Positions 11,355 through 64,000 of a stretch of DNA of 64,000 bases are shown here, in pieces. Position 1 is the stretch's first letter, and every line of letters begins with the position of its first letter. The notes beneath the pieces were generated by a model that searched no databases, was not told the origin of the DNA, and saw only the letters and a list, made by a program, of their open reading frames with translations. The position numbers and the translations under genes are program-made. The stretch lies in contig DASQAT010000021.1 of NCBI GenBank assembly GCA_035635555.1, positions 23,975 to 87,974 of the forward strand, written 5' to 3'. The DNA is from Candidatus Dormiibacterota bacterium (lineage in GTDB: Bacteria > Acidobacteriota > Polarisedimenticolia > Gp22-AA2).

Positions 11355-11434
11355 TCGTCCAGTCTCCGATGGCAGGGAATTGTACGCGCTTCGGCGCCCG
11401 GGACAACAGCGAGTTTTCGCCGCGGACCGCGGAG

Positions 11435-11890: not shown

Positions 11891-11975
11891 CGTGGTTCCG
11901 ATCCTACACGCAGCGAGGGCGCGCCGCGCCCAGGGACGGCCTCGCGGCGTCACCCTGGGGTAGAGTGTCGGCGCC

Positions 11976-39426: not shown

Positions 39427-39437
39427 CGGGTCGGGTC

Positions 39438-40589: not shown

Positions 40590-42007
40590 GGAGTCACCTC
40601 CGACGACGTCATCGAGCCGCGCGCCAGATCGGCATCGAGCCCCAGGGCCCGGCGCAGGTCGTTGCGCACGGAGAACAGGTCGAATTGAAGATCCATGACC
40701 TTGAGGAGCAGATCGGTGTGCGTGCGGCGCGCCAGGAGGAGGTCGGTCATGCTCACGCCGCCTCTGTTGACCGCCCCGAGGGTCGCCTCCAGCACCCCCT
40801 TCGATTTGGGCACCGCCTGCTCGAGGAGCCCGTCGAGCGTGCGCTCCAGGGACGCACGACGCTCCTGGAGCGCCTGCACGTCGGCCCGCCCCCGCTCCCG
40901 CAGGCCGGCGGCCGCAAGCTCCAGCTCGCGGGCCCGCGCTTCGGCGCGGCTCGCGTCGTGCTGGCCGCGGTCGAAGATCGGCAGAGGGATGCCGATGGAG
41001 AACAGGTAGGTGCGCGGCTGGTCGCCGGAAATCGTCAGATTGTCATGGGTGTATCCGAGGCTCAGGCTGGGATCCGGGATCCTGCGCCGGCGGGCCAGGA
41101 GCGCGTCCTTCCCGGCCGCGTCGCGCTCGAGCATCAGCGCCTGGATGTCGGGCCGGCGGTCGATCGCCGTCCGGATGTCTCCGGGCTCCGGCAGCGCGGC
41201 GGCGCCGTTCACGCTGTCGATGCCGGTCTCCTCCACACCGCAGGGGGCCGCCAGCACCGCGCCGCAGGAGGCCACCTCGGCCTCGGACTCCCGGAGGTTG
41301 GCGGCGACCTCCGATTCGAGAAGCATCGTGTCGACCAGGAGACGGTCGAAATCGTTTCCGCTCAGATCCCCGTTGTCGACCCGCGAGCGCTGCAGCTCCA
41401 CGTTCTGCTGAGCCGACGCCAGGCTGTCCTCCAGGACCGACTGGCGCGCGCCCAGGTAGGCGACGCGGCCGAGGACGGCGCGCGCCTCGGCCATGGTGTC
41501 GCCGAGCACATCCAGGTACAACCGCCGTCCCGATTCGAGGCGCAGGCGGGCCGATTCGATGCGCGGCCCGCGCTTGCCGATCTCCACCGTCTGCGACAGG
41601 ACCGTGCCGTAGATCGCGGTGTCCTTCGAAGTCAGTCCCGGCGGGTTGGTGTCGCCCAGCGGCAGGTCGGAGACGCTCCCGGAGAGAGAGGGATTGAGGT
41701 GCAGTCGATCCTGCCGGAGCGCCGCCATCGCCTGGTCGACGCGCGTGGCCGCGGCCAGGACATCCTTGTTATTGTCCTTGAGCCAGGAAAGGAGCATCCG
41801 GTCGTCGGCGAGCAACGACTTGACCGCCACGGAGTCGCCGGTCTGCCGAGGTAACGCAGCCGGCGAAGCCTCCGTGGCGGTGTCCACGCCTGTGTCGGGA
41901 GGCGCGGCCACGGCCAGGCCCGCTGCGAAGTAAAGCAGGAGTGCGGCCCCGGGGGAGAACGCGGGCCTCCTGGCGATCCTCGCGATGGCGGTTCCTCTCT
42001 TTCCCAT
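40586..42007 (-). CDS. czcC: outer-membrane efflux protein (TolC/CzcC family)
   Basis: The product is 473 aa with a signal peptide (MGKRGTAIARIARRPAFSPGAALLLYFAAGLAVAAP). TolC-family repeats include LSLGYTHDNLTISGD... and LQFDLFSVRNDLRRALG. Extending the ORF upstream of 42007 would run through the sigma-54 promoter. Confidence 0.8.
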   Translation of the reverse strand: MGKRGTAIARIARRPAFSPGAALLLYFAAGLAVAAPPDTGVDTATEASPAALPRQTGDSVAVKSLLADDRMLLSWLKDNNKDVLAAATRVDQAMAALRQDRLHLNPSLSGSVSDLPLGDTNPPGLTSKDTAIYGTVLSQTVEIGKRGPRIESARLRLESGRRLYLDVLGDTMAEARAVLGRVAYLGARQSVLEDSLASAQQNVELQRSRVDNGDLSGNDFDRLLVDTMLLESEVAANLRESEAEVASCGAVLAAPCGVEETGIDSVNGAAALPEPGDIRTAIDRRPDIQALMLERDAAGKDALLARRRRIPDPSLSLGYTHDNLTISGDQPRTYLFSIGIPLPIFDRGQHDASRAEARARELELAAAGLRERGRADVQALQERRASLERTLDGLLEQAVPKSKGVLEATLGAVNRGGVSMTDLLLARRTHTDLLLKVMDLQFDLFSVRNDLRRALGLDADLARGSMTSSEVTP

Positions 42008-42049
42008 GGCCCCTTCGGTAGCCTCCCTGTTCAGCTTGTTCGTCCAGGA

Positions 42050-42068
42050 TCGCAAGCTTCGTGCCACG
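42050..42068 (-). promoter_or_regulatory. sigma-54 (RpoN) -24/-12 promoter upstream of czcC
   Basis: The minus strand reads gTGGCACGAAGCTTGCg, a perfect match to TGGCACG-N4-TTGC with exact GG-N10-GC spacing. It lies about 43 nt upstream of the czcC ATG. A sigma-54 activator is encoded in the same operon. Confidence 0.6.
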
Positions 42069-42152
42069 GTCCTCGTCCACCTAACCCGTTGAATCGACGG
42101 GATGCCTCGAGTTGGGCGGCCCGGCGTCGGCGGTCCGCTGAAAAAATCTTTC

Positions 42153-43586
42153 ATGGCCGGTTTCGGTGCTGGCGTATCCTGTCCGGGAAGCCCGGCGTGT
42201 TCGGGGGAGGGGGCCCTGGCAAACAAGTACCTGCGTGACCCGATCCACGGTTCGATCGGATTCGACAAGGATCGGGAGAAGGTGGTCCTCGATCTCCTGA
42301 ACACCCGCGAGTTCCAGAGACTGCGGCGCATCCGGCAGCTCGGCGCGCTGTTCCTGACTTTCCACGGCGCGGAGCACACCCGCTTCACCCACTCGGTCGG
42401 CGTGGCCTTCATGGCGAAGCGGATCTTCGACGCGCTCCTCGCCGCCGGGCAGATCCCTCGGAAGGGGCGCGCGCTGGAGCGCACGCGCCTCGTGGCGATC
42501 GCCGCGGCCCTCCTGCACGACGTCGGACACGGCCCGTTCTCGCACCTGTACGAGAAGGTGTTCAACGACCGCAAGCACGAGGAATGGACCCGGCTGATCA
42601 TCCGGCATGCCCGCGGGGAGGCGGGGCGGCTGCTGCGCCGCGCCGGCCTGGTGGACGAAGTCCTGGCGGTCTACGATCGCACCTATCGGCCGTCGTTCGT
42701 GTCCGACATCGTCTCGTCGCAGCTCGACGCGGATCGGCTCGACTACCTGCTGCGCGACTCGTTCATGACCGGCGTCGCCTACGGTCAGTACGATCTCGAG
42801 TGGATCCTCACCAATCTGAGGCTGGCGCGGCGGGGCCGGCCGGGCGCCGGGAAGGATTCGGATCTGAGGCTCGCCATCAACGGGACGAAGGGGTACCACG
42901 CGGCCGAACAGTTCGTCATCGGCCGGTACCTGATGTATCAACAGGTGTATTACCACAAGACGAGCCGAGCCGCGGAGCAGATGATCCGCACGGCCCTCCA
43001 GCGCCTGGTCGACGCCCACGCCGAGAGCGGCCGGCTGCCCGATCCCTGCCCGGAGTCGATCGGTCGCCTGGTCGAGACACGCGGCAACCTGCCGGTCGAG
43101 GACTTCCTGCGTCTGGACGACTGGCTGTTCCTGTCGGCCTTCCAGGAGTGGTCGCTCGCGCCCGTCGGCCGCGTCGACGCCGTGCTGCGGGACCTGTGCG
43201 ACCGGATCACGCGGCGGCGGCTGTTCAAGACGGTTCGACTGACGACGGGCACGCGGCACAAGGCGTTCGGCCAGGCGATCGAAGAGCTGAACGATCTGTT
43301 CCGGAAGAAGGGGTTCGACCCGCGCTACTACCTCCTGGAGGACGACGCGACCGATCTGCCGTACCGCGATCTGGCCTACTCCGATCGCATGGGAACGGCT
43401 CCGGAGGACATCGGCCTGGCGGTGCGCGGGCGCATCGTCGGCTACATGTCCGAGCGCAGCGTGTCGCCGCTCATCGACTCGATCCGGAATGAGCCGCGCA
43501 AGCTGCAGCGGCTGTGCTTCCCCGAGGCGATGCGCGGCGTCGTCGAGCGCCGGCTGAAGCCGTTCATCGCCAGTGAACGGCAGTAG
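42153..43586 (+). CDS. HD-domain metal-dependent phosphohydrolase (dGTPase-like / YdhJ-type)
   Basis: HD motifs are present (RDPIHGSIGF...EFQRLRRIRQLG...HTRFTHSVGVAF...LLHDVGHGPFSH, and DADRLDYLLRDSFMTGV). It is divergent from czcC. Confidence 0.8.
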   Translation: MAGFGAGVSCPGSPACSGEGALANKYLRDPIHGSIGFDKDREKVVLDLLNTREFQRLRRIRQLGALFLTFHGAEHTRFTHSVGVAFMAKRIFDALLAAGQIPRKGRALERTRLVAIAAALLHDVGHGPFSHLYEKVFNDRKHEEWTRLIIRHARGEAGRLLRRAGLVDEVLAVYDRTYRPSFVSDIVSSQLDADRLDYLLRDSFMTGVAYGQYDLEWILTNLRLARRGRPGAGKDSDLRLAINGTKGYHAAEQFVIGRYLMYQQVYYHKTSRAAEQMIRTALQRLVDAHAESGRLPDPCPESIGRLVETRGNLPVEDFLRLDDWLFLSAFQEWSLAPVGRVDAVLRDLCDRITRRRLFKTVRLTTGTRHKAFGQAIEELNDLFRKKGFDPRYYLLEDDATDLPYRDLAYSDRMGTAPEDIGLAVRGRIVGYMSERSVSPLIDSIRNEPRKLQRLCFPEAMRGVVERRLKPFIASERQ

Positions 43587-51201: not shown

Positions 51202-52662
51202 ATGCGCGGTTTCAAGAACACTCTCAAGCCGCTGAACATCCTGCCGCCCGAGGCGGAGGAGCAGGTGCACCGCGCCACCCTGAAGATCCTGCGCGAGCAC
51301 GGGGTGATCTTCGAGGACGGGCGCGCCCTCGACCTGTTCCGCAAGGCGGGGCTCAAGGTGGATGACGCCGAGCAGCGCGTCTTCTTCCCCCCCGAGTTCG
51401 TGGAGCAGCAGATCGCGAAGGCGCCGGCGCAGTTCACCCTTCAGGCGCGCAATCGCGACAACGACGTGATCATCGGCGGCGACCACCTGGTGTTCGCGCC
51501 GGTCAGCGGACCGCCGTTCGTCGCCGATCGCGAGGGCGGCCGGCGCGACGGCACGCTCGAGGAGCAGAACAATCTCGTCCGCCTGTCCGAGGTCATCGAC
51601 GTCATGCACCACGGCTGCCCGGAGGTGGCGGTCAAGGACCTGCCGGTCGAGACGCGTCACCTCGACATCCTGTACCACCAGGTCCGGCTGAGCGCCAAGG
51701 GGATGATCGGCGACGCCTGGAGCACGGAGCGGGCGCGCGACCACATCGACATGATGGCGATCGTCTTCGGCGGCCGCGAAAAGATCGCCGAGCGACCCGT
51801 GCTGATCGGGATCATCAACTCGAACAGCCCGCTGCGCTACGACTCGAACATGGCGGAGGGGCTCATCGAGTACGCCGCCGCGGGGCAGGTGAACGTCATC
51901 ACGCCGTTCATCATGGCCGGCGCGACCAGTCCGGTGACGCTGGCGGCGGCGGTGGCCCAGCAGAACGCCGAGTGCCTGGCGGCGATCGTCCTGGCCGAGA
52001 CGGTGCGTCCCGGAGCGCCCGTGATGTACGGGTCGTTCCTGACCGGCCTCGAGATGCGCACCGGCGCCCCCGCCTTCGGCCGGCCGGAAGCCGCGCTCGG
52101 CATCCTGTCGTCGGCCCAGATGGCGCGGCGGTATTCGCTCCCCTGCCGGGCCGGCGGTGTCCTGACCAACTCCAAGGTGCCCGACGCGCAGGCCGGGTGG
52201 GAAAAGATGATGCAGCTCTGGCCGATCGTGCTGGGCGGGTGCCACTACGTCCTGCACGGCGCGGGCTGGCTGGACGGCGGCCTGACGGCCTCGTTCGAGG
52301 CGATGGTCCTGGATGCCGAGATGCTGGAGATGCTGCCGCGCTTCTTCGCGGGTGTGCCGGTCAGCGATGAAACGCTCGCTCTGGACGTGATCGCCCATGT
52401 CGGGGCGGGCGGACACTTCCTGGGGGAGGAGCACACGCGCAAGCACTTCAAGACGGAGTTCCACTTCCCGAACCTGGCCGACACGGAGGCCTACGAATCC
52501 TGGGTCAAGAAAGGGCGGATGGACGCCGAGACGCGCGCCACCACGCGCTGGAAGAAGCTCCTCTCGTCCTACCAGGAGCCGAAGCTCGATCCCGCCGTCG
52601 ACGAGGAGCTCCGGGACTTCGTCGCCCGCCGCAAGCGCGCCATCGAGGCCACGATCGACTAG
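51202..52662 (+). CDS. MttB-superfamily (trimethylamine methyltransferase-like) corrinoid-dependent methyltransferase, non-Pyl type
   Basis: The 486-aa product shows MttB-family similarity throughout (KILREHGVIF...IINSNSPLRYDSNMAEGLIEYAAAGQVNVITPFIMAGATSPVTLAAA...). No in-frame TAG is present, so it is a non-pyrrolysine MtgB/MtcB-like member. Confidence 0.8.
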   Translation: MRGFKNTLKPLNILPPEAEEQVHRATLKILREHGVIFEDGRALDLFRKAGLKVDDAEQRVFFPPEFVEQQIAKAPAQFTLQARNRDNDVIIGGDHLVFAPVSGPPFVADREGGRRDGTLEEQNNLVRLSEVIDVMHHGCPEVAVKDLPVETRHLDILYHQVRLSAKGMIGDAWSTERARDHIDMMAIVFGGREKIAERPVLIGIINSNSPLRYDSNMAEGLIEYAAAGQVNVITPFIMAGATSPVTLAAAVAQQNAECLAAIVLAETVRPGAPVMYGSFLTGLEMRTGAPAFGRPEAALGILSSAQMARRYSLPCRAGGVLTNSKVPDAQAGWEKMMQLWPIVLGGCHYVLHGAGWLDGGLTASFEAMVLDAEMLEMLPRFFAGVPVSDETLALDVIAHVGAGGHFLGEEHTRKHFKTEFHFPNLADTEAYESWVKKGRMDAETRATTRWKKLLSSYQEPKLDPAVDEELRDFVARRKRAIEATID

Positions 52663-52888: not shown

Positions 52889-55800
52889 TCAGAGCGTGCA
52901 CCCCCGGATCGCCGGGCCCGCGGTGTCGACGGGGCCGTTCCGTCGCAGCATCTCGACGAAGACGTCGTGGCCGCTCTTGTGCTTCGGAATCGGCGAGAAA
53001 TAGACGGCCCCCTCCTGAGTCACACACGCTTCGCAGGGGATCGTGGCGCTGTTGAGCTGGACACGCTCCCCCTGCGAAGTGAACATCACGATGTTGAAGC
53101 CGAGAATGTCGGTCTCGAACTGTGTCCTCCAGCTCACCGTGGCGGATCCCCTCCCGAGCGGGCTCGTGAAGCTGATGCACACCGCGACGATCTGCTGGAC
53201 GCACGAGGTGACGCCCGGCAGATACGGGCACGGATCGCAGACGTCGCCGACGCCGTCGTGATCTGCATCCGCCTGATCCGGGTTCGGCACGCCGGGACAG
53301 TTGTCTCTTGCGTCCGGTATTCCGTCCCCGTCGGTGTCGGGGGGCGTGGTGACGGTGGACGGACAGTACCTGCCGCCTGTGTCGTAGCCAAAGTCGCCGC
53401 CCCAGACGATCATCTCGCTGCCGGTCCAGGTCGCCGCGTGTCCCTCCCGGCGCGACGGCGTGGTCGCGTCGTCCCGTGTGGCGCTCCAGACGTCGCCGAC
53501 GGGATCGTAGAGGCCTCCGGAGCTCGTGGTGAAGCTGAATTCGTTGATCGTGCCGCCCCAGACGATCATCTGGGAGCCGGTCCACACGGCCGAATGATCG
53601 AAGCGCGTGAGCGGAGTGAGAGGACCGACGTTGGTGGGATCCCACATGTCGGATAGCGGATCGTAGCGCGCGCCCGAGTTGTACACGACGACATTGCCGT
53701 ACGTCTCCCCGCCCCAGACGATCATCTGACTGCCGGTCCAGACGGCGGTATGACGCACGCGCGCGGAGGGGCTGCGAGAGTCCACTCGTGTCGGCGTCCA
53801 GGAGTCGGAGACCGGATCGTACTGCCCGCCGGTGTCGTGCACCATGTAGGTGCCATTCGACAGGATGCTTTCGCCGCCCCAGACGATCATCTTCGAACCG
53901 GTCCAGACGACCGATGGCCGGGCGCGCCCGGGTGGTGCCGTAGCGTCGGCCCGAGTCGCCGTCCAGCGATCGGCAGCAGGGTCGTAGCGGCCGCCGCTGT
54001 TGCTCGCCCCCACACCGGCGACGTACCCGCCCCACACGATCATCTCCGTCCCCGTCCAGACGGCGGCCTGACCGACCCGTTCGACGGGGGTCTCGGAGTC
54101 CACTCCAGTTGCGGACCACGTGTCGGTCGCCGGATCGTACCGGCCTCCCCCCTGCGTATAGGTGTCTCCGCCCCAGACGATCATCTGGGAGCCGGTCCAG
54201 ACCGCCGCGTGGTTCCCCGTGGGGGCCGGAGTCGTCGCGTCGAGGCGGGTGGGGGTCCAGTTGTCGGTCGCCGGATCGTAGCGCGCGCCGTCGTTGTGGT
54301 ACGTGCCCGAATTGCCCCCCCAGACGATCATCTCCGCGCCGGTCCAGACCGCCGTGTGGTCCCCGCGGCCGGCCGGCGTCTGATCGTGCGAGGTCGGGAC
54401 CCACGTGCCGGAGACGGGATCGAATCTGCCTCCGGTGTTGTGGTGATAGCTGCTGCCGCCGGGACCGCCCCAGACGATGAGCTCGCTTCCGGTCCAGACC
54501 GCGCGCTGGGGGACCGGACCGAACGAGGTCGGGTACGCGGGGATGGGCGTCCACGAGTCGGTGGCCGGGCGGTAGCGCGAGCCGGCATAGGCCGACGTCG
54601 CCGCGCCCCAGACGATCATGTCGCTCCCCGTCCAGAGCGCGTCGTGCCCGGAGCGCGCGGCAGGGGCCGTAGCGTCGGCGCGTGTCGCCGTCCAGGCGTT
54701 GGCAGTCGGGTCGTATCGCCCCCCCGTGTTCAGCGGGAAATAAAGAGGATAGAACGGGCCCTGCGTGTAATAGCTTCCCCCCCAGACGATCATCTCGGTC
54801 CCGGTCCAGATCGCCGTGTGGTTCGAGCGCGGCACCGGCGTGCCGGCGTCCACCGGGGTCGGAATCCACGTGTCGGTCTGTGGAGAGTAGCGGCCGCCGC
54901 TGTTGAAGTAGGTGAACTGGGAGCCTCCCCGGCCACCCCAGATGAGCATCTCGCCGCCGTTCCAGACGGCGCTGTGATCGGTGCGCGCCTCCGGTGCCGG
55001 CGGATCGGTCCGGACGGTGATCCAGGTGTCCGTCGACGGATTGTAGCGGCCGCCCGTGTTCGTGACCGCGAACTCCGATCCGACGGTCCCTCCCCAGACG
55101 ATCATCTCGGTCCCGGTCCACACCACTGTGTGGCCCGTGCGCGCGGAGGGGGTCGTGGCATCGAGGTGGGTCGGCGTCCAGGTGTCGGTGACCGGGTCGT
55201 ATCTCCCTCCGTCGTTGAGCACGGCGTTGATGCCGCCCGCGGTTCCACCCCAGACGATCATCTCGTGTCCGGTCCAGATCGCCTTGGTCACTCGCGGCGC
55301 GGGAGCCGTGGCGTCCGACCGCACCCGGGTCCACGAGTCCGTCGCCGGGTCGTAGCGGTCGCCCGTGTTCAGGGTCCCGGCGAAGCCGTTCCCGCCCCAC
55401 ACGATCATCTCGCTGCCGGTCCACAGGGCCACGTGATTGGAACGCGGATAGGGCAGGGCGCGGTGGACCTCGGTCCAGGTGTCGGCCGTGCAGCTTGTCT
55501 GGGCGATGTCGGGCAGGCGGAAGGAACCGGACAGTGTGTCCGCGCTCGCCGGCAGCCCTCCTCGCACGCCCGCCCACCAGGTGTCGAAGGGCACCTTGCG
55601 CCAGACGACCTCGGTCGTTTCGATCCGGACCGCTTCGACACGATGTACGAAAATGACCACGAGGGCATCCTCGTCCTCGATGAGCCGGCTGGGGGTGTCG
55701 AGCGGAATGTCGTGTGCCGCGCCGGTCATCCCCTCGAAGGCGCCGGCCAGTCTCGCCCGCAGACCATCCCATTCGGGTCGATTGAGACGAACGACCCCCC

Positions 55801-56410
55801 GCTCGCCCGGTCCGTCCGCCCCCGCAATCCCGGCGGTCACGCCATCCAGAAGAAAGATCACGCGCGAGACCTCTCCGCCGGCCCGCGACAGGGCGTCGGG
55901 GCCCGCGCCTTTCAGCATGGCCTGCACGGCGCGGCTGCGGACCGCTTGGTGAAGTCGATCGTCGTGGGCGTACCAGGTCCGGACGAGGCGGTCGACCAGG
56001 GCAGGGCGGGCCAGAGTCTCGGCGGCCAGGAGCGGGTCGCGGCCGAGAGAGGCGAACAGCTCGCCGAGGACCTCGGGCGACCGTGTGTCCGCTGCCATGC
56101 GATCGAGCTCGGCCTGCACCTGCGCGGGCGTGAGGTCACGCCCCCAGAATTTCCGCAGCGCGGCCTCCTTGCGGAGAGCGTCGACGACCTTGGAGCGAAT
56201 CGCCGCGTCGGGGAGAACGCGACTCAGCGGGGGCTTCGCTGACCGGTTCTCCGCCGGCCAGATGCGGTGCCGCCAGTAGACCTCCTCGACGGCCCGTCGG
56301 GCGGCGATGCGTTGCTCGATTGTCAGCTGTTCGGACGCCTGAGTGCCGCTGGCCAGCAGGACCAGCGCGTAAAGACTTACGGAAGCGGCGCGCCAGATGG
56401 AAGGTCTCAT
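52889..56410 (-). CDS. secreted 1173-aa protein: N-terminal about 300-aa domain, 14 Kelch-type beta-propeller blades, thrombospondin type 3 Ca-binding repeat, C-terminal Cys-containing domain
   Basis: GGAGGAGG RBS and a signal peptide (MRPSIWRAASVSLYALVLLASGTQA). Fourteen repeats of H[TS]AVWTG[ST]EMIVWGG....GGRYDP.TD.WT occur. The TSP3 signature is DTDGDGIPDARDNCPGVPNPDQADADHDGVGDVCDPCP. Confidence 0.75.
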   Translation of the reverse strand: MRPSIWRAASVSLYALVLLASGTQASEQLTIEQRIAARRAVEEVYWRHRIWPAENRSAKPPLSRVLPDAAIRSKVVDALRKEAALRKFWGRDLTPAQVQAELDRMAADTRSPEVLGELFASLGRDPLLAAETLARPALVDRLVRTWYAHDDRLHQAVRSRAVQAMLKGAGPDALSRAGGEVSRVIFLLDGVTAGIAGADGPGERGVVRLNRPEWDGLRARLAGAFEGMTGAAHDIPLDTPSRLIEDEDALVVIFVHRVEAVRIETTEVVWRKVPFDTWWAGVRGGLPASADTLSGSFRLPDIAQTSCTADTWTEVHRALPYPRSNHVALWTGSEMIVWGGNGFAGTLNTGDRYDPATDSWTRVRSDATAPAPRVTKAIWTGHEMIVWGGTAGGINAVLNDGGRYDPVTDTWTPTHLDATTPSARTGHTVVWTGTEMIVWGGTVGSEFAVTNTGGRYNPSTDTWITVRTDPPAPEARTDHSAVWNGGEMLIWGGRGGSQFTYFNSGGRYSPQTDTWIPTPVDAGTPVPRSNHTAIWTGTEMIVWGGSYYTQGPFYPLYFPLNTGGRYDPTANAWTATRADATAPAARSGHDALWTGSDMIVWGAATSAYAGSRYRPATDSWTPIPAYPTSFGPVPQRAVWTGSELIVWGGPGGSSYHHNTGGRFDPVSGTWVPTSHDQTPAGRGDHTAVWTGAEMIVWGGNSGTYHNDGARYDPATDNWTPTRLDATTPAPTGNHAAVWTGSQMIVWGGDTYTQGGGRYDPATDTWSATGVDSETPVERVGQAAVWTGTEMIVWGGYVAGVGASNSGGRYDPAADRWTATRADATAPPGRARPSVVWTGSKMIVWGGESILSNGTYMVHDTGGQYDPVSDSWTPTRVDSRSPSARVRHTAVWTGSQMIVWGGETYGNVVVYNSGARYDPLSDMWDPTNVGPLTPLTRFDHSAVWTGSQMIVWGGTINEFSFTTSSGGLYDPVGDVWSATRDDATTPSRREGHAATWTGSEMIVWGGDFGYDTGGRYCPSTVTTPPDTDGDGIPDARDNCPGVPNPDQADADHDGVGDVCDPCPYLPGVTSCVQQIVAVCISFTSPLGRGSATVSWRTQFETDILGFNIVMFTSQGERVQLNSATIPCEACVTQEGAVYFSPIPKHKSGHDVFVEMLRRNGPVDTAGPAIRGCTL
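53400..55400 (-). repeat. 14 tandem about 144-nt Kelch-blade coding repeats within the CDS (approximate span)
   Basis: About 48-aa units recur regularly in the protein. DNA-level periodicity is expected but was not computed. Confidence 0.5.
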
Positions 56411-56551
56411 GGTCCTCCTCCTAGGCAAGGAGTACGGTGAGTATGACCCATAAATACCTCGAACAGGCGGCAAGTCAACAAGGAACTTGGATCGCTGCTC
56501 GCTGGCACACCCATGGCTGCCAGTCTCGTGGGTGGGCGGAGCGCGGAGGCG

Positions 56552-57976
56552 CTAGGACCGGCTCCGCCACCGTCCGAACGCGTAGACGACGACCCCGCTG
56601 CCGGTGCTCAGGAGCGTCAGCCCGAGGATCTTGGCGACCGCCAGGGCCTTGTGCGGCTCGTCCTCCGCGGGGAAGAAGGACAGCACGATCGAGGCCGCCG
56701 TGGTGAGGAATCCGACCGCTCCGGCCAGGACCGCCACCGGGCGGCCGCCCGGCACGCGGATCACGTCGGGGCCGGCAGGCTCGCGCTGCAGACGGATCAT
56801 CGACGCGAACACGAGCAGGAAGGGGATGAGCGTGCAGATGACCGTCATGCTGACCAGGATGTCGTACGCTCCCTTCACCGTCTGGCCGGCCTGACCGAGG
56901 ACGATGCACACGACGATCGTCGCGCCCAGGGTCAGAAGGGCCACGTGCGGCGTGCGCCATTTCGGGTGGAGGCGCCCGAAGCTGTCGGGGAGGTAATGGT
57001 CGAGCCCGGCGACGAACGGCAGCCGCGCGACCGAGGCCAGCCAGGCGCCCACGCTGCCGAGGGCGCTGAGGGTGATCAGGAAGGCGGCGACGGGCGTGAG
57101 ACCCTCGAGACCCAGGCGCGTGGCGGCCGCTTCGATGGCGTCGATCGGTCCCTGCAGGCCGCTGAGCCTCTCCGGCGGCAGGGCCACCAGGACGCAGATC
57201 GTTCCGAGGAGGTACATGAGAGTGATGAGGGGCAGGGAGACGAAGATGGCGCGCGGAATGGTGCGACGCGCGTCCTTGATCTCCTCGCCCATGAACGACG
57301 CCGACTCGAACCCGGTGAGGGCGAAGGCGAGGGTCGACCAGAAGACCAGATCCCTGAGCCCCAGCCCCGGGGTCAGGGAGGCGCGCGTGAACCGGGTCGC
57401 CGGTCCGAGACGCACCCAGGCCATCAGGCCGATGATGATGAGGGCCAGGGTCGCGGCCCAGCGGGCGAAGGCGCCCACGTTGCTGATCCACTTGCCGAAC
57501 TGCAGGCCGAGCAGGTTCGGCACTATCCCGAGTGTGAGTCCCAGGAGCGCCGCCACGATCATGTAGGACGGGCTCGCGGCCAGGCGCCGCCAGCCGCCAC
57601 CTCCGATGTACAGCGCGTTTCCGGCCGCGAAGTAGAGGACGCCCGGAAAGTAGGGCAGGTTGCTCATCCAGTAGGTCCACCCGGTCATGAAACCCGCGAA
57701 TTCGCCGAAGGCGCGCTTGCTCCAGACGTACATCCCCCCTTCCTGCGGGTAGCGGGACGACATCTCCACGATCGAGAACGCCAGGGGGACCGCCATGGCC
57801 GCGAAGGCGATGAGCCAGACGGTCAGAGCACTCGGACCCGCGACGCTCGCGGCGGCGACCCATTGAAGGTTGATGCCGGCGGTGATGAAGTACAGCACGA
57901 CATCGCCGAACCCCATGACACGGCGGAGGCCGGCGGTCTGGGTGGTGCTCGTTGAGGTGTGTTCCGACGGCTGCAT
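56552..57976 (-). CDS. APC-superfamily amino acid/polyamine permease
   Basis: The product is 474 aa with 12 TM segments and typical APC motifs (MGFGDVVLYFITAGINLQW..., FALTGFESASFMGEEIKDARRTIPRAIF). The start is M53 of ORF 56552..58132. Confidence 0.85.
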   Translation of the reverse strand: MQPSEHTSTSTTQTAGLRRVMGFGDVVLYFITAGINLQWVAAASVAGPSALTVWLIAFAAMAVPLAFSIVEMSSRYPQEGGMYVWSKRAFGEFAGFMTGWTYWMSNLPYFPGVLYFAAGNALYIGGGGWRRLAASPSYMIVAALLGLTLGIVPNLLGLQFGKWISNVGAFARWAATLALIIIGLMAWVRLGPATRFTRASLTPGLGLRDLVFWSTLAFALTGFESASFMGEEIKDARRTIPRAIFVSLPLITLMYLLGTICVLVALPPERLSGLQGPIDAIEAAATRLGLEGLTPVAAFLITLSALGSVGAWLASVARLPFVAGLDHYLPDSFGRLHPKWRTPHVALLTLGATIVVCIVLGQAGQTVKGAYDILVSMTVICTLIPFLLVFASMIRLQREPAGPDVIRVPGGRPVAVLAGAVGFLTTAASIVLSFFPAEDEPHKALAVAKILGLTLLSTGSGVVVYAFGRWRSRS

Positions 57977-58180: not shown

Positions 58181-58210
58181 TTGACGACATGAGCCGCACC
58201 GGACTAAACT
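58181..58210 (+). promoter_or_regulatory. candidate sigma-70-type promoter (TTGACG-18-TAAACT) for the TetR-led operon
   Basis: The -35/-10-like hexamers have an 18-nt spacer. The -10 overlaps the 20-bp palindrome. This rests on sequence pattern only. Confidence 0.3.
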
Positions 58211-58227
58211 ACCGACCGGTCGGTAGT
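58208..58227 (+). promoter_or_regulatory. 20-bp perfect palindrome ACTACCGACCGGTCGGTAGT, a candidate TetR operator
   Basis: It is a perfect inverted repeat 30 nt upstream of the TetR ATG and overlaps the candidate -10. This is the typical autoregulatory arrangement for the TetR family. Confidence 0.45.
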
Positions 58228-58256
58228 GTCCCGGCGGTGCCGCGCCGGGAGACCGG

Positions 58257-58868
58257 ATGAAGAAGAGGACGCGGCAGGACCGGCCGACCCGCCAGGCGCA
58301 GATCTTCGAGACCGCGGCGCGTCTCTTCTGCGAGAAGGGATTCGACAAGGCGTCCATGGGCGACATCTCGGCCGCTCTCGGGCTCACGAAGGCGGGGCTC
58401 TATCATCACATCCGGAGCAAGGAAGAGCTTCTCTACGAGATCATGTCGTACGGCATGGACCTGTTCGAGCAGAAGGTTCTCAACCGGGTGATGACCATCG
58501 ACGATCCGCTCGACCGGATCCGGGCCACTCTCAGGGGACACGTCCTCCTGGTCACACGCGACCGGCCCAAGGAGATCACCGTCATCCTGCACGAGAGCAA
58601 CGCCCTGAAGGGGCGATACCGCGACAGGATCAACGCCCGCAAGAAGAGGTACGTGAAGTTCCTGGAGAAGACGTTCCGGGAGCTGCTCAGAAGCGGCGCC
58701 GCGCGCCGCATCGATCCCTCGGTCGCCACCTTCGCGATGCTCGGCATGATCAACTGGATCTACCAGTGGTACCGCCCCGGCGGACGGCTGGACGAGAACG
58801 CCCTGGCGGAGACGCTTACCGATCAGTTCCTTGGCGGCGTCCTGAAGCGGGCCGAGAGCACCCGATGA
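58257..58868 (+). CDS. TetR/AcrR family transcriptional regulator
   Basis: It has an N-terminal HTH (QIFETAARLFCEKGFDKASMGDISAALGLTKAGLYHHIRSKEELL). The product is 203 aa. Confidence 0.8.
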   Translation: MKKRTRQDRPTRQAQIFETAARLFCEKGFDKASMGDISAALGLTKAGLYHHIRSKEELLYEIMSYGMDLFEQKVLNRVMTIDDPLDRIRATLRGHVLLVTRDRPKEITVILHESNALKGRYRDRINARKKRYVKFLEKTFRELLRSGAARRIDPSVATFAMLGMINWIYQWYRPGGRLDENALAETLTDQFLGGVLKRAESTR

Positions 58869-59917
58869 AGACGGCGCGCGCGGTCGGTGTCGCCGGTTAC
58901 GGCGCCTACATCCCGCGGCCGCGCATCGCCGCGGCGACCATCGCCTCGGCCTGGGGCAAGTCGGCGGACGCCCGGCTCCCCGTGCGCGAAAAGTCGGTCC
59001 CGTCCGCCGACGAGGACACCGTGACGATGGCGATCGAGGCGGCGCGCGGGGCGCTGGCGCGCTCGCGCGTCTCTCCTCCGGCGATCCGGGCGGTCTGGGT
59101 GGGGACCGAGTCGAAGCCGTATGCCGTGAAGCCCTCGAGCACCATCGTGGCGGAAGCGATCGGCGCGATCCCCTGGGTGAGCGCGGCCGACCTCGAGTTC
59201 GCCTGCAAGGCCGGCTCGGAGGCGATGCAGGCCGCCTGCGCCTATGTCGGGTCCGGCATGGCCGACCACGCCCTGGCGATCGGCATGGACGCGGCCCAGA
59301 GCCGGCCGGGGGACCACCTGGAGTTCACGGCGGCGGCGGGGGGCGCGGCCTTTCTCTTCGGTCCGGCGGACGGGGCCCTGGCCGAGGTCGAGGCGTCCCG
59401 CTCGTACGTCACCGACACTCCGGACTTCTTCCGGCGGCAGCACATGCACTACCCCGAGCACGGGCACCGCTTCACGGGCGAGCCGTCCTACTTCAAGCAT
59501 TCGCTCGAGGCGTCGCGCGGTCTGCTCGCGGAGCTGGGGCGGAAGCCGTCCGATTACCGCTGGGCGGTCTTCCACCAGCCGAACCCGAAATTCGTGCGCC
59601 GGGTCGCCGCGGAGCTCGGATTCTCTGAAACGCAGATCGCGGCCGGGAGCGTCGTGGATCACATCGGCAACACCTACTCGGGCGCGTCTCTCCTCGGCCT
59701 GGCGGCGATCCTGGACGTCGCCCGCGCGGGAGACCGGATCTTCTTCTGCTCGTACGGATCGGGGGCGGGGAGCGACGCCTTCTCGCTCCAGGCCACCGCG
59801 CGCCTGGAGAGCGCGCGCGCCCTGGCCCCCCTGGTCGGCGATTACCTAGCGAGACGCCGTCCGATCGAGGACTACGGGGACTATCTCAGAGTGACGCGCG
59901 CGATCAGGATGCTGTGA
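58865..59917 (+). CDS. hydroxymethylglutaryl-CoA synthase-like condensing enzyme (archaeal-type HMGCS/KAS-III-like family)
   Basis: MKTARAVGVAGYGAYIPRPRIAAATIA..., with an active-site Cys context (EFACKAGSEAMQAA) and a His region (FHQPNPKF). It overlaps the TetR stop and is co-located with a thiolase-like and a DUF35 gene. Confidence 0.75.
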   Translation: MKTARAVGVAGYGAYIPRPRIAAATIASAWGKSADARLPVREKSVPSADEDTVTMAIEAARGALARSRVSPPAIRAVWVGTESKPYAVKPSSTIVAEAIGAIPWVSAADLEFACKAGSEAMQAACAYVGSGMADHALAIGMDAAQSRPGDHLEFTAAAGGAAFLFGPADGALAEVEASRSYVTDTPDFFRRQHMHYPEHGHRFTGEPSYFKHSLEASRGLLAELGRKPSDYRWAVFHQPNPKFVRRVAAELGFSETQIAAGSVVDHIGNTYSGASLLGLAAILDVARAGDRIFFCSYGSGAGSDAFSLQATARLESARALAPLVGDYLARRRPIEDYGDYLRVTRAIRML

Positions 59918-61068
59918 TGAGAGACGTCGCCATCATCGGTGTCGGCCAGACGTCTGTCGGGGAGCACTGGGATCGCTCCCTGCGCGATCTCGCGGTCGAG
60001 GCGATCGCCTCGGCGCGCCAGGACGCGGGGGTCGATCGTGTGGACGTCCTGTTCGTCGGAAACATGCTTTCGGGCGAGCTGGCCGGGCAGGAGAACCTCG
60101 CCACCTGCGTCGCCGACGCCGCCGGTCTCCTGCCGATCGAGGCGCTCAAGATCGAGGCGGCCTGCGCCTCCGGGGGCGCCGCGCTGCGGGCCGCCTTTCT
60201 CACGGTGGCCTCGGGGGCGCACGACTTCGCGCTCGCGGTCGGGGTCGAGAAGATGACCGATCTCCTCACGGACGGCGTGACGTCGGCCCTCGCCCTCGCG
60301 GCGGACGCGGACTACGAGGCCGCGCACGGTCTGACCTTCGCGGCCCTCAACGCCCTCTTGATGCGGCGCTACATGCACGAGCACCGGGCGCGTCACGAGG
60401 ACTTCGCTCCGTTCTCGGTCAACGCGCACAGGAACGCCGCCGTGAACCCGCGCGCCATGTACCGCCAGCCGATCACGGTTGCGGACTTCGTCCGCTCCCC
60501 GGTCGTCGCCGATCCGATCAACATCCTGGACTCGGCCGGGATCTGCGACGGTGCGGCGGCGCTGCTGGTCTGTCCGGCCACCGAGGCGCGCCGGGCCCGC
60601 CGCGCCCCGGTGCGGATCACCGGGTCGGCCTGCGCCACCGACACGCTGGGTCTCGCGGAACGCCGGGACCCGCTCCTCTGGCAGGCGGTGGCCGACTCGT
60701 CGCGCCTCGCCTGCGAGCAGGCGAGGCTCAAGCCGAAGGACATGGACCTGTTCGAGCCGCACGACGCCTTCACCATCGTCTCGGTCCTGACGCTCGAGGC
60801 CAGCGGCTTCGCGGATCGCGGCAGCGCCCTGAAGCTCGCCGCCGAGGGGCGGCTGGCACGCGAGGGGGACATCCCCATCTGCACCCTGGGCGGGCTGAAG
60901 GGGCGCGGCCACCCGGTGGGGGCGAGCGGCGCCTACCAGCTGGTCGAGACGGTGCTGCAGCTCCGCGGCGAGGCCGGTCCCGCCCAGGTGAAGGGTGCTT
61001 CGATCGGCATGGCCCAGAGCGTCGGGGGGTCCGGGTCGGTCGCGGTCACCCACATCCTGCAGGTCTGA
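59914..61068 (+). CDS. thiolase-like protein (SCP-x/archaeal acetyl-CoA C-acetyltransferase type)
   Basis: RDVAIIGVGQT..., with a Cys in IEAACASGGAALRAA and the C-terminal GGLKGRGHPVGASGAYQLVE. Its start overlaps the previous stop (ATGA). Confidence 0.8.
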   Translation: MMRDVAIIGVGQTSVGEHWDRSLRDLAVEAIASARQDAGVDRVDVLFVGNMLSGELAGQENLATCVADAAGLLPIEALKIEAACASGGAALRAAFLTVASGAHDFALAVGVEKMTDLLTDGVTSALALAADADYEAAHGLTFAALNALLMRRYMHEHRARHEDFAPFSVNAHRNAAVNPRAMYRQPITVADFVRSPVVADPINILDSAGICDGAAALLVCPATEARRARRAPVRITGSACATDTLGLAERRDPLLWQAVADSSRLACEQARLKPKDMDLFEPHDAFTIVSVLTLEASGFADRGSALKLAAEGRLAREGDIPICTLGGLKGRGHPVGASGAYQLVETVLQLRGEAGPAQVKGASIGMAQSVGGSGSVAVTHILQV

Positions 61069-61079
61069 GAGGATCCATC

Positions 61080-61493
61080 ATGGAGCTGCCTCGTTTCCAT
61101 CGTCTGCGCGGTCCGTTCTACCGCCTGGAAGGAAACGCCTGCGCGGCCTGCTCGCTCCGCTTCTTCCCGCCGCGCCCTGTCTGCCCTGCGTGCAGGGGAA
61201 ACGGACTCCCGTCCTTTGCCTTCTCCGGACGCGGGACTCTCTACTCCTGGAGCCGGGTCCTGCAGCCGGCGCGCGGTTACGCCTCGATGGCCCCGTACCT
61301 GGTCGGGATGGTGCGTCTCGAGGAGGGGCCGCTGGTCTCGGCGCAGCTGGCCGACGCCGACGGTGTCGACCTGACAATCGGGATGCCCGTCGAGATGGTG
61401 ACCCGCCGGCTCCGCGACGCCGACGAGCACGGCTACATCGTCTACGGCTACAAGTTCAGGCCGCTCCTGCGGGAGACGCGAAAGCAGCCGTGA
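61080..61493 (+). CDS. DUF35 OB-fold/Zn-ribbon protein (partner of thiolase-like enzymes)
   Basis: It has a CxxC...CxxC zinc ribbon (CAACSLRFFPPRPVCPACRG) followed by an OB fold (GTLYSWSRV...MVRLEEGPLVSAQL). The product is 137 aa. Confidence 0.7.
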   Translation: MELPRFHRLRGPFYRLEGNACAACSLRFFPPRPVCPACRGNGLPSFAFSGRGTLYSWSRVLQPARGYASMAPYLVGMVRLEEGPLVSAQLADADGVDLTIGMPVEMVTRRLRDADEHGYIVYGYKFRPLLRETRKQP

Positions 61494-62398
61494 GCCCCCG
61501 GGCGGAGCGCGTCGCCGACCTCGGGGAGGCCGCGGCTCTCCTGCGCGACGGCATGGTCGTCGGTCTCTCCGGTTTCTCCTACCAGAACCCGCCCATGGCG
61601 ATCGTGCGGGAGATCATCCGCCGCGGAGTCAAGGACCTGACCGTGGTGTCGGGCCCGACCTCGGGGCTGGAAACGGATCTGCTGATCGGGGCCGGGTGCG
61701 TCAGGCGCGTGGTGACCGCCGGCGTCGCGTTCGAGCGTGTGGCGGCCATCGCGCCCGCGTTCCGGAGGGCCGCGGAGCGGGGCGACCTGTCGGTCTGGGA
61801 GTGCGACGAGTGCATCTGGCACCTGGCGCTCAAGGCGGCGGCCTGGGACATGCCACATCTGCTGTGGCGCGGCGGCGTCGGCACGTCGCTCCCCGAGCTC
61901 AACCCCGATCTGGAAGAGGTGACCGAGGGAGGGCGGCGTTATATCCGGGTGCCGCCGGTGCGGCCGGACATCGTCTTCCTGCACGCGGCCGAGGCCGATC
62001 CGTTCGGCAATGTCCGCGTGGCGCGCGAGGCGTATCTGGGACGCACCTTCTGCGAGAGGGCGCTGACCCTGGCCTGCCGCGGACCGGTCGTGGCGACCGT
62101 CGAGCGCATCGTGCCGAACCTGGACGTCGCCGCCTCCCCGGAGAGGACGATTGTCCGCGGCGCCCTGGTGGTCCCGGTCCCCTGGGGCGCCCACCCCGGC
62201 GGCGTCAGCGGACGCTATGTCCCGGACCTGGCGCACTACCGCGAGTACGCCGCGGCGGGCGAGGCGCGCAGGCACGACGACCCGGTCCCGTACCAGGCGT
62301 ATCTGGAACGGCACGTCTTCGGCCTGGACGGCCAGGAGGCGTATCTGAAAGAGATCGGTGCCGCGCGATTGGACCGCCTGGGGACGTCGTGGGCCTGA
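61490..62398 (+). CDS. CoA-transferase subunit A (3-oxoacid/glutaconate CoA-transferase family)
   Basis: The GTG start overlaps the DUF35 stop. Family sequence is present (LRDGMVVGLSGFSYQNPPMAIVREIIRRGVKDLTVVSGPTSG, DIVFLHAAEADPFGNV). Confidence 0.75.
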   Translation: MSPRAERVADLGEAAALLRDGMVVGLSGFSYQNPPMAIVREIIRRGVKDLTVVSGPTSGLETDLLIGAGCVRRVVTAGVAFERVAAIAPAFRRAAERGDLSVWECDECIWHLALKAAAWDMPHLLWRGGVGTSLPELNPDLEEVTEGGRRYIRVPPVRPDIVFLHAAEADPFGNVRVAREAYLGRTFCERALTLACRGPVVATVERIVPNLDVAASPERTIVRGALVVPVPWGAHPGGVSGRYVPDLAHYREYAAAGEARRHDDPVPYQAYLERHVFGLDGQEAYLKEIGAARLDRLGTSWA

Positions 62399-63228
62399 GC
62401 CCGGCGGGCGGTCACGACGCGGCGGCGCCCCGGACCGCGGCCGGAGACGTGGCGCGGCTTCTCGCCTGCGTGGTGGCCCGGGAGCTTTCCGACAAAGAGA
62501 CGGTCGCCTTCGGTTTGCACGCCGAGCTGCTTCTGGCCGCGGCCCTCCTGGCGCAGAGACTGCACGCACCGAACCTGACGATCCGGCACGGCCTGCGCGT
62601 GGAGCGGGGACACGAGCTCTCCCCCGCCGCCTGGACCGACGAGCCGACGAGCCGATCGTACGGGCTCGTCGAATATCTCGAAGCGCACGACGCGATCCTG
62701 GATGTCGCCAGCCGGTCGTCCCCGATGCGATTCTGCGATGTCTTCTTCGTGGGGGGGATGCAGATCGATCGCGAGGGGAGCACCAACCTGATCGGTCTCA
62801 AGGGCAGGGACGGGCGCCTCGCGGTCAGGGGGCCCGGTTCGATCGGCACGACCTCCATCGGGACGCTGGCGCGGCACGTCATCCTGTTCTCGGGGGAGCA
62901 TACGCCGCGGCGCTTCGTCGAGCGGGTCGACTACGTGTCGGTGCCGGGCTGGCGCCGCCGCGCGGCGGCCGGTCTCGAGGGGGGGCCGTCGCTGTGCGTG
63001 ACCCCGCTCGCGGTCCTCGATTTCGCCGACGGTTTCATGCGGCTCCGTACGGTGCACGCCCACGCCACCGAGGCGGACGTGCGGCGACGCACGGGGTTCA
63101 CGCTGCCCCCCTCGCCCGTCGTGGGCACGCCCCCTCCGACCGCCGTGGAGCTCGCGGCGCTCGCGGAGATCGATCCCTCCGGAAGGCTGGACGGGCTGGA
63201 TCTGAGCCCGGACGGCGGGCCGCCGTGA
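62389..63228 (+). CDS. CoA-transferase subunit B
   Basis: The GTG start overlaps the previous stop. Family sequence is present (MRFCDVFFVGGMQIDREGSTNLIG...GPGSIGTTSIGT). Confidence 0.7.
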   Translation: MGLSPAGGHDAAAPRTAAGDVARLLACVVARELSDKETVAFGLHAELLLAAALLAQRLHAPNLTIRHGLRVERGHELSPAAWTDEPTSRSYGLVEYLEAHDAILDVASRSSPMRFCDVFFVGGMQIDREGSTNLIGLKGRDGRLAVRGPGSIGTTSIGTLARHVILFSGEHTPRRFVERVDYVSVPGWRRRAAAGLEGGPSLCVTPLAVLDFADGFMRLRTVHAHATEADVRRRTGFTLPPSPVVGTPPPTAVELAALAEIDPSGRLDGLDLSPDGGPP

Positions 63229-64000
63229 GCGCCCTCGTGACGCTGCGACAGGCGGCCGCCTCCGTCCCGGACGGCGCTCTCGTCACCTTCGGGGGATTCC
63301 AGCTCAACCGGGCCCCGATGGCGCTGGTGTTCGAGCTGCTGCGCCAGAGGCGGCGCGGTCTGCGGGTCGTGACGCTGCCGAATCCGCTGCCGCTCGATCT
63401 TCTCGTGGCCGGTGGGGCCGTAGCCGAGACGGAGTTCGGGTTCATCGGCTTCCAGTTCGAGGACGGGTTCGTCACGGCGCCGCACGTCAAGCGCCGGATC
63501 GAAGCCGGTTCGCTGCCGTTCAAGGAGCGCGATGTGTACGAGATCGTGCAGGGCCTGCGGGCGGCGGCCCTCGGCCTGCCGTACCTCCAGGCGCCGGGGA
63601 TCGAGGCGTCCGGCTACATGACGGTGAACCGCACGCGGATGATCGAGGACCCGACGACCGGGGAGAAAGTCCCGGTGGCACCGGCGATCCGGCCCGACGT
63701 GGCCCTGGTGCACGCCCAGATGGCGGACAGGAAAGGAAACCTGCGCATCGACGACCTGTACGCCGAGGATCTCCTGGCGCGCGCCAGCGACCGGGTCATC
63801 GCCACGGCGGAAACGATCGTCGATCGGCTGGAGGCCGCGACCATCCCGCACTTTCTCGTGGACTGCGTGGCCGAGGCGCCCGGCGGGGCGTTTCCGACCT
63901 CGTGCCACCGCGCTTACAGATATTCGGCGCCGCACCTGCGCGACTACCTCGCCGCGGCCTCCCAGGGGCGGACGGACGAATATCTCGGGACCTTCGTGAG
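63225..64000 (+). CDS. second CoA-transferase subunit A-like protein, 3' partial (runs off the window end)
   Basis: The GTG start overlaps the previous stop. VSALVTLRQAAASVPDGALVTFGGFQLNRAPMALVFELLR... parallels the subunit A N-terminus. No stop occurs before 64000. Confidence 0.6.
   Translation, partial: MSALVTLRQAAASVPDGALVTFGGFQLNRAPMALVFELLRQRRRGLRVVTLPNPLPLDLLVAGGAVAETEFGFIGFQFEDGFVTAPHVKRRIEAGSLPFKERDVYEIVQGLRAAALGLPYLQAPGIEASGYMTVNRTRMIEDPTTGEKVPVAPAIRPDVALVHAQMADRKGNLRIDDLYAEDLLARASDRVIATAETIVDRLEAATIPHFLVDCVAEAPGGAFPTSCHRAYRYSAPHLRDYLAAASQGRTDEYLGTFV

Follow-up and report, generated by a model that had tools for sequence, protein, structure and literature searches.

The window analysed here is a 64,000-nt stretch from a Candidatus Dormiibacterota bacterium (contig DASQAT010000021.1 of GCA_035635555.1, positions 23,975-87,974 of the forward strand). 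Near its end are seven co-directional reading frames (58257-64000, + strand), the families of which were confirmed with Pfam and NCBIfam. These frames very probably belong to a biosynthetic operon that is repressed by its end product and that corresponds, in a soil acidobacterium, to the alternative isovaleryl-CoA biosynthesis (AIB) operon of Myxococcus xanthus. Such an operon would serve to convert three molecules of acetyl-CoA into isovaleryl-CoA (IV-CoA), which iso-odd fatty acids need as a primer. In order, the frames encode a TetR-family regulator (AibR), a 3-hydroxy-3-methylglutaryl-CoA (HMG-CoA) synthase, a thiolase, a DUF35 protein, a pair of CoA-transferase-like subunits that will be called xA and xB, and the start of a fused AibA-AibB protein.

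The AIB reading is based on homology, catalytic motifs, the operator and conserved synteny, and from it we infer the direction of the pathway, its product and the formation of a complex. By homology, the route would lead from acetyl-CoA to IV-CoA as follows. The thiolase would condense two acetyl-CoA to acetoacetyl-CoA, and the HMG-CoA synthase would add a third to make HMG-CoA. Dehydration of HMG-CoA would then yield 3-methylglutaconyl-CoA, a step for which the candidate enzyme is xAB or else a crotonase encoded elsewhere. The fused AibA-AibB protein would decarboxylate 3-methylglutaconyl-CoA to 3,3-dimethylacrylyl-CoA, and an AibC-like Zn-dependent reductase would reduce this to IV-CoA. Finally, AibR with IV-CoA bound would turn the operon off from a palindrome that lies over the -10 box.

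The M. xanthus operon consists of aibR-aibA-aibB-aibC-mvaS (MXAN_4263-4267), and the HMG-CoA dehydratase LiuC is encoded outside it. The likenesses to the operon described here are extensive. Both have an AibR-type TetR regulator with an essentially identical operator sequence, AibA/AibB proteins in which Cys replaces the CoA-transferase Glu, an AibC-type medium-chain reductase and an HMG-CoA synthase, and in neither is a crotonase part of the operon. However, there are differences. The HMG-CoA synthase is archaeal-type here, whereas it is MvaS-type in M. xanthus. The acidobacterial operon also includes thiolase and DUF35 genes, has aibA and aibB fused, carries the extra pair xAB and is ordered colinearly with the proposed pathway. 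Its host belongs to the Acidobacteriota rather than the Myxococcota, and the enzyme core of the operon, without AibR and AibC, is found in two MAGs of DPANN archaea too. An earlier note on this DNA had stated that its reading would be refuted if the genes belonged to a well-characterised operon with a known substrate. To a large extent they do, in that the M. xanthus system has matches for AibR, the operator, AibA/B and AibC, but the combination with the trio (thiolase, HMG-CoA synthase and DUF35) and the xAB pair remain uncharacterised.

No description of this operon arrangement was found in the searchable literature and, to our knowledge, the AIB pathway has been studied only in myxobacteria. 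With this operon, the pathway would reach a class of uncultured Acidobacteriota that is widespread in soil and sediment. Among the cultured members of this phylum are some known for their iso-branched lipids and their membrane-spanning iso-diabolic-acid lipids. There may also be a practical side. AibA/B have already been used for isovalerate-derived products, and therefore a compact, possibly channelled, eight-gene cassette is of interest for metabolic engineering.

The AibR regulator and its operator

The first gene of the operon (58257-58868, + strand) encodes the TetR-family protein. The earlier note proposed that its ligand be sought among characterised regulators, and that comparison leads to AibR, with an E-value of 2.3e-59 to PDB entry 5K7F. 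AibR structures (5K7F, 5K7H, and 5K7Z) are available and IV-CoA is the co-repressor in M. xanthus (PMC5389471). The binding pocket was compared at 15 residues, consisting of 13 that make side-chain contacts with IV-CoA together with Tyr51 and His114. Eleven of these are identical (F72, L100, V101, I112, L113, H114, K131, K132, Y134, W169, and Y51) and two have changed conservatively (V109I and K175R), leaving L168N and K172Q as the ones that differ. By homology, the protein is an AibR orthologue, and it is predicted to use isovaleryl-CoA as its co-repressor.

The operator agrees with this. In M. xanthus the AibR operator is ACCTACCG-NN-CGGTAGGT (PMC5389471). The predicted site in the window is a perfect 20-nt palindrome, ACTACCGACCGGTCGGTAGT (58208-58227), which overlaps the -10 box of a sigma-70-like promoter (TTGACG-18 nt-TAAACT, 58181-58210, + strand, or 3100-3129 of the overlapping contig L001 described below) that was assigned by consensus match only. 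Relatives have a TAnnCT hexamer at the equivalent place, again abutting the AibR operator. Compared with the M. xanthus 18-mer ACCTACCGGTCGGTAGGT, the window operator has two to three mismatches (58207-58228), and the matches at this position are the sole ones in the 64 kb, against a chance expectation of 0.07. The 18-mer occurs upstream of aibR in all 27 aibR-carrying sequences that were compared (26 loci and the window) with zero to three mismatches, and in five of them it is matched without any. Therefore, judged from these sites, the regulator and its operator are a pair conserved between Myxococcota and Acidobacteriota.

The intergenic region that bears the operator is shared with a divergent gene encoding an APC-family amino-acid permease (56552-57976, - strand). 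For this reason the permease might be co-regulated, for example for leucine uptake. The permease gene is retained at the aibR-divergent position in the closest relatives (L001, L002, and L035-L037), but not in the more distant loci L003 and L006.

An archaeal-type trio in a bacterium

The next three genes encode an HMG-CoA synthase of 350 aa (58865-59917, + strand), an SCP2-class acetoacetyl-CoA thiolase (59914-61068, + strand, starting at GTG 59914 or ATG 59917) and a DUF35 protein (61080-61493, + strand). The earlier note likened them to the archaeal thiolase/HMG-CoA synthase/DUF35 complex, and this likeness has been borne out. The HMG-CoA synthase passes the NCBIfam equivalog models NF003274 (485 bits, cut-off 244) and TIGR00748 (462 bits, cut-off 353), but fails the bacterial MvaS model TIGR01835 (99.9 bits, cut-off 360). 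Its nearest structure is the Methanothermococcus protein 6ESQ_I (E-value 1.9e-107), followed by PhlA (4.6e-49), with bacterial MvaS-type enzymes at about 1e-15. The catalytic tetrad of HMG-CoA synthase is E-C-H-N (PMC12960953). The note had stated that a lack of the catalytic Cys, His, and Asn would refute its reading, but the whole tetrad is present, as E82, C114, H237, and N269.

The other two subunits give a similar picture. The thiolase scores 449.5 bits with NF004720 (cut-off 420), matches 7YVY_A (E-value 9e-119) and 6ESQ_A (1.7e-80), and keeps the CxS (CAS), HDxF (HDAF), and GHx (GHP) motifs. The DUF35 protein matches both PF12172 and PF01796 and has a four-Cys zinc ribbon (CAAC...CPAC) and an OB fold. 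Going by these motifs, the trio is of the archaeal type and looks catalytically intact, and the DUF35 protein is probably a scaffold that holds the thiolase and HMG-CoA synthase together, as it does in the archaeal channelling complex. All three subunits of that complex have a counterpart here, complete with the tetrad, the three thiolase motifs and the Zn ribbon. The setting is different, however. The trio described here is bacterial, has no linked mevalonate genes and is coupled to a predicted decarboxylase and reductase route to IV-CoA.

Those bacterial trios for which the activity has been characterised (PhlACB, MucABC, and the P. fluorescens ACAT/HMGS-DUF35 complex) are without the tetrad and make no HMG-CoA (PMC12960953). 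The trio in the window has the same three-gene architecture, also in a bacterium, but it keeps every catalytic motif whereas those complexes have lost the tetrad of the HMG-CoA synthase. Within the literature found, this is the first bacterial trio that has apparently retained HMG-CoA synthesis and has an assignable pathway.

The genes of the operon are tightly packed. Five of the six junctions overlap, by ATGA, GTGA (or a 1-nt TGATG), GTGA, 10 nt, and GTGA in order. The earlier note had reported an overlap at every junction, but the thiolase and DUF35 genes are separated by 11 nt with a GAGGA ribosome-binding site.

The fused decarboxylase homologue and the AibC-like reductase

The last frame (63225-64000, + strand) is cut by the window end after 258 codons and had been taken for a second A-like CoA-transferase subunit. 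An A-like frame does exist, but it is merely the first part of a 534-aa fused A+B protein, of which only the AibA portion lies inside the window. This emerged from an exact-protein look-up that found two near-identical contigs, L001 and L002, reaching beyond window position 64000 (window coordinates equal L001 coordinates plus 55081). Synteny past this point, which the note had also wanted followed, continues with the rest of the fused AibAB, a 349-aa Zn-dependent dehydrogenase (L001:9806-10855, outside the window), and a terminator-like hairpin, with a convergent outer-membrane protein gene beyond. The dehydrogenase is the AibC-like reductase, with an E-value of 2e-117 to 5K1S, which we take to be M. 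xanthus AibC.

The part of the fused protein encoded in the window matches AibA (5MZW_A) with an E-value of 4.8e-65. In the full protein from L001, residues 6-259 correspond to AibA (5MZW_A, 1e-63) and residues 298-533 to AibB (5MZW_D, 2e-53). Structures 5MZX and 5MZZ are of AibA/AibB, the 3-methylglutaconyl-CoA decarboxylase, in which Cys56B replaces the CoA-transferase glutamate (PMC7756340). The fused protein keeps the equivalent of this cysteine in a YINCVG motif. By homology, the third "CoA-transferase" frame is the start of a fused AibA-AibB, a 3-methylglutaconyl-CoA decarboxylase homologue.

Distribution of the operon

A scan with one genome per species found 28 loci, all in metagenome-assembled genomes (MAGs). 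About 23 are from Acidobacteriota (Candidatus Polarisedimenticolia, "gp22"), and there is one each labelled Binatia, Nanoarchaeia, Woesearchaeota, unclassified bacterium, and Solirubrobacteraceae. A metagenome scan added 80 further loci. When these were mapped by tblastn, the order AibR-HMGS-thiolase-DUF35-xA-xB-AibA-AibB-AibC (HMGS denoting the HMG-CoA synthase) was found in every acidobacterial locus that is long enough (about 40, metagenome-derived), which argues that the arrangement is not due to chance. The same nine-domain order occurs in a different neighbourhood on two multi-megabase contigs.

Three of the other loci contain parts of the operon. In the Nanoarchaeia (DPANN) MAG (L029, 162-7519 on the + strand and 9482-12531 on the - strand), HMGS-thiolase-DUF35-xA-xB and a fused AibAB are present without AibR or AibC and are flanked by two SDRs. 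This module is beside genes for a bacterial-type glycerol-3-phosphate dehydrogenase (GpsA) and two PlsC-like acyltransferases. Such neighbours are of the fatty-acid and phospholipid type, and may point to an archaeon that makes fatty-acid ester lipids, or else to a mis-binned contig. In the Woesearchaeota MAG (L030:32-6556, + strand), xA-xB-AibA come after 2-oxoacid:ferredoxin oxidoreductase subunits, a B12-binding protein, MeaB, a methylmalonyl-CoA-mutase-family protein and an aminotransferase, which is a branched-chain acyl-CoA context. The third, from a MAG labelled only "bacterium" (L004), has thiolase-DUF35-xA-xB-AibA-AibB on a contig that is cut upstream of the thiolase gene, and downstream of the operon come genes for biotin carboxylase, carboxyltransferase, BCCP, and BioY.

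In one Polarisedimenticolia MAG, the operon is immediately followed by a lipid-type cluster (L036:14519-20834, + strand). This cluster encodes an acyltransferase, two acyl carrier proteins, a FabA/ApeI-like dehydratase, a glycosyltransferase, a lipid-A-type acyltransferase, LolA, and an MMPL protein, and resembles an aryl-polyene cluster.

The xAB pair

Between the trio and the decarboxylase are the genes for xA (61490-62398, + strand), the alpha subunit of a glutaconate-CoA-transferase-like pair (PF01144), and xB (62389-63228, + strand), the beta subunit, which was recognised by similarity to the CoA-transferase fold. The pair is only distantly related to AibA/B, GctA/B, and IpdA/B (E-values from 1e-23 to 1e-3). 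xA is roughly equidistant from IpdA (6CON, 2.5e-23), GctA (6e-22), and AibA (8e-18), and xB is weakly similar to IpdB (1e-3). A motif in xA, VWECDECIW, is invariant, being kept in the archaeal members too, and it aligns with AREMDEGML of IpdA.

Similarity to xA, xB, and AibAB is detectable in family I CoA-transferases such as GctAB (1POI), which share the two-subunit alpha/beta fold. The GctB reference sequence was verified as identical to 1POI_B, and its catalytic Glu54 is within IIVESGL. However, in three independent alignments there is no acidic residue at this position of xB. The site is occupied by R66 in the MAFFT alignment, falls in a gap between R66 and H67 in the hhalign alignment, and in an ungapped comparison with AibB it is G68 that stands opposite Cys56B. 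None of the CoA-transferase-like beta subunits encoded by the operon keeps the catalytic glutamate, which is replaced by R-H-G in xB and by Cys in the AibB domain. R66-H67-G68-L69 is invariant in 17 diverse members. E72 of xB (in RVERG) was considered as a shifted catalytic glutamate and rejected, as three family members have D, K, or G there instead.

Another pair of this fold without the beta-subunit glutamate is IpdAB (6CON/6CO6), a retro-Claisen hydrolase that cleaves steroid rings. In addition, ECDEC of xA aligns with EMDEG of IpdA, so that E-x-D-E is common to both, and the second Glu of the IpdA motif is what we take to be its catalytic base, Glu105. Set against this, xB is barely similar to IpdB, RHGL is found only in xB, and there is no steroid-catabolic context and there are no such genes nearby.

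The limits of the xB clade are sharp. In a full HMMER search of 1.84 billion cluster representatives, the clade was represented by only two full-length clusters (50% identity), which scored 465 and 387 bits, after which scores fall to 189 bits, and among the HMMER matches the RHG motif is confined to the xB clade. Relatives of xB at 33-43% identity are without the xA motif, the operon, or both, and were treated as other families. Examples are L100-L116 and L034, in which WECDEC is missing. Because the clade is narrow, has invariant motifs of its own and is without the catalytic glutamate, xAB is, on these alignments, a small, sharply defined and neofunctionalised branch of the CoA-transferase fold and not an ordinary CoA transferase.

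One metagenome contig (L105:1372-9214) has two divergent DUF35/thiolase plus CoA-transferase-like A/B sets with an adjoining TetR gene. The contig, whose A/B pairs are 34-41% identical to xA/xB, represents another family that brings these folds together and is likewise uncharacterised.

Is xAB an HMG-CoA dehydratase?

What might this pair do? The earlier note had suggested an unusual HMG-CoA-forming route primed by a CoA transferase. The HMG-CoA-forming part of this still holds. Priming is not supported, given that the beta subunits are without the catalytic glutamate and that one of the two pairs is an AibA/AibB decarboxylase homologue. Another idea, which we favour although we would put its chances somewhat below even, is that xAB supplies the missing step of the pathway, the dehydration of HMG-CoA. 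This assignment is suggested because the sole unassigned gene product and the sole unassigned step coincide, and because the xAB genes stand between those for HMG-CoA formation and that for the decarboxylase in an otherwise colinear order. No crotonase is encoded in or beside any of the operon copies examined among loci with annotated flanks, and a scan of the 58 kb upstream within the window found no enoyl-CoA hydratase, HMG-CoA reductase, or mevalonate kinase. In an archaeal fatty-acid synthase, a dehydratase is reportedly brought to a thiolase by a DUF35 protein. By analogy, IpdAB shows that the CoA-transferase fold can activate water.

In its fullest form the idea is that xAB is a hitherto unknown HMG-CoA dehydratase (3-methylglutaconyl-CoA hydratase) that needs no cofactor, arose from the CoA-transferase fold and docks to the DUF35-scaffolded thiolase/HMG-CoA synthase complex, making the operon a self-contained line from acetyl-CoA to isovaleryl-CoA. 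This is tentative, and on balance less likely than not. If it is true, xAB would join AibAB and IpdAB as a third case of new chemistry in this fold. The idea would also mean that uncultured Acidobacteriota, and with the core module some DPANN archaea, make iso-branched primers for their membrane lipids independently of leucine. Several observations weigh against it. We know of no enzyme with the CoA-transferase fold that is a dehydratase, and new chemistry in the fold has only two precedents, namely decarboxylation by AibAB and retro-Claisen hydrolysis by IpdAB. xAB co-occurs with the archaeal-type trio rather than with any demonstrated absence of LiuC. Furthermore, all carriers are uncultured MAGs or metagenome contigs.

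Perhaps, then, the operon is an AIB operon in which xAB is not the dehydratase and HMG-CoA is dehydrated by a LiuC-type crotonase encoded elsewhere, the main alternative and one that comes fairly close to an even prospect. M. xanthus runs the pathway in just this way, with LiuC from outside the operon. In that case xAB could be a non-canonical CoA transferase that activates, for example, isovalerate, 3-methylglutaconate, or HMG, which would be in keeping with its fold and with the statement in the M. xanthus LiuC paper that the isovalerate-activating enzyme is unknown. However, xB has no acidic residue at the nucleophile position and so ping-pong CoA transfer is unlikely. Alternatively, xAB could be an isomerase that acts after decarboxylation, converting 3-methylbut-3-enoyl-CoA to dimethylacrylyl-CoA, since one proposed AibAB mechanism yields an intermediate that still needs to be isomerised. 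Further options are that it is a second decarboxylase, or that it partners AibAB or the DUF35 complex without being catalytic itself. One difficulty for all such roles is that M. xanthus needs no helper of this kind. Another is the retention of xAB in the archaeal and "bacterium" MAGs, which have small genomes and in which the contig stretches examined contain no crotonase. Whichever role applies, xAB is an orphan enzyme pair that is tightly conserved and for which a candidate reaction readily suggests itself, and that makes it a clean target for enzymology.

Other readings of the operon

The remaining explanations do without the AIB pathway. Could the trio feed the mevalonate pathway for isoprenoids, as it does in archaea, with the neighbouring genes being unrelated? 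The trio passes the archaeal tests for HMG-CoA synthase and thiolase, which is what such a role would predict. However, neither the window nor the annotated flanks of related loci contain a gene for HMG-CoA reductase or mevalonate kinase. In addition, the trio is translationally coupled to homologues of AibR, AibAB, and AibC in an order that is fixed across phyla, and the regulator resembles a sensor of IV-CoA. This makes the mevalonate explanation quite improbable.

A slightly poorer prospect, with very little in its favour, is the catabolic route that the earlier note had entertained, in which the enzymes would work in the thiolytic, retro-aldol, or retro-Claisen direction on an aromatic, steroid, or keto-acid side chain, as in BbsAB, ChsH-Ltp2, and IpdAB. 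A DUF35 protein with an SCP2-type thiolase is the architecture of BbsAB and Ltp2, and xA is as near to IpdA as to any other protein, including the shared E-x-D-E motif. Nevertheless, the scores with the NCBIfam equivalog models are far below the cut-offs (BbsB, 188 bits vs. 750; BbsA, 42 bits vs. 250), the HMG-CoA synthase tetrad is intact, and genes for ring cleavage, an acyl-CoA dehydrogenase, or a hydratase are absent from the flanks examined. Regulation of the end-product type, by an AibR orthologue, fits biosynthesis, and operation in reverse would require an ATP-free carboxylation.

The least credible alternative, a C-acetyltransferase complex of the PhlACB/MucABC type that acts on a secondary metabolite, has on its side that PhlA is the second-best structural relative of the HMG-CoA synthase and that every bacterial HMGS/ACAT/DUF35 complex characterised so far is of this kind, but these complexes are without E-C-H-N, Phl and Muc are also without HDxF, both of which are present here, and no polyketide synthase or nonribosomal peptide synthetase genes are nearby in the loci with annotated flanks.

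Base composition and neighbouring genes

The GC content of the operon (0.69-0.72) is the same as that of the rest of the window (about 70% throughout), and in base composition there is thus no hint of recent horizontal transfer. Long antisense frames opposite the operon (58823-63935, - strand), such as those at 59881-61053 (390 aa) and 61448-62569 (373 aa), both also on the - strand, were dismissed as artefacts of the 70% GC, and none is called by the gene callers on L001 and L002.

Beside the permease gene, on the side away from the operon, is one for a 1194-aa secreted Kelch-repeat protein with thrombospondin type-3 repeats (52889-56473, - strand), and beyond this an MttB-family (trimethylamine methyltransferase-like) gene (51202-52662, + strand). 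The Kelch-repeat gene looks like a lineage-specific insertion, because the MttB-like gene and the permease gene are adjacent or one small gene apart in L035-L037. The MttB-family gene encodes 486 aa with no in-frame stop and therefore is presumably a non-pyrrolysine member. It is conserved beside PGI upstream of the operon in relatives.

Two further observations concern genes more distant from the operon. The start of the window cuts a gene for a bacterial homologue of angiotensin-converting enzyme (1-1776, - strand; peptidase M2, E-value 3e-158). Finally, a 1408-aa frame for an RND (AcrB-type) transporter (36298-40524, - strand) has its AcrB domain from residue 372 on and is adjoined by an outer-membrane factor gene (40586-42601). 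Either the start of this frame has been placed too far upstream, or the transporter is fused to an upstream component.

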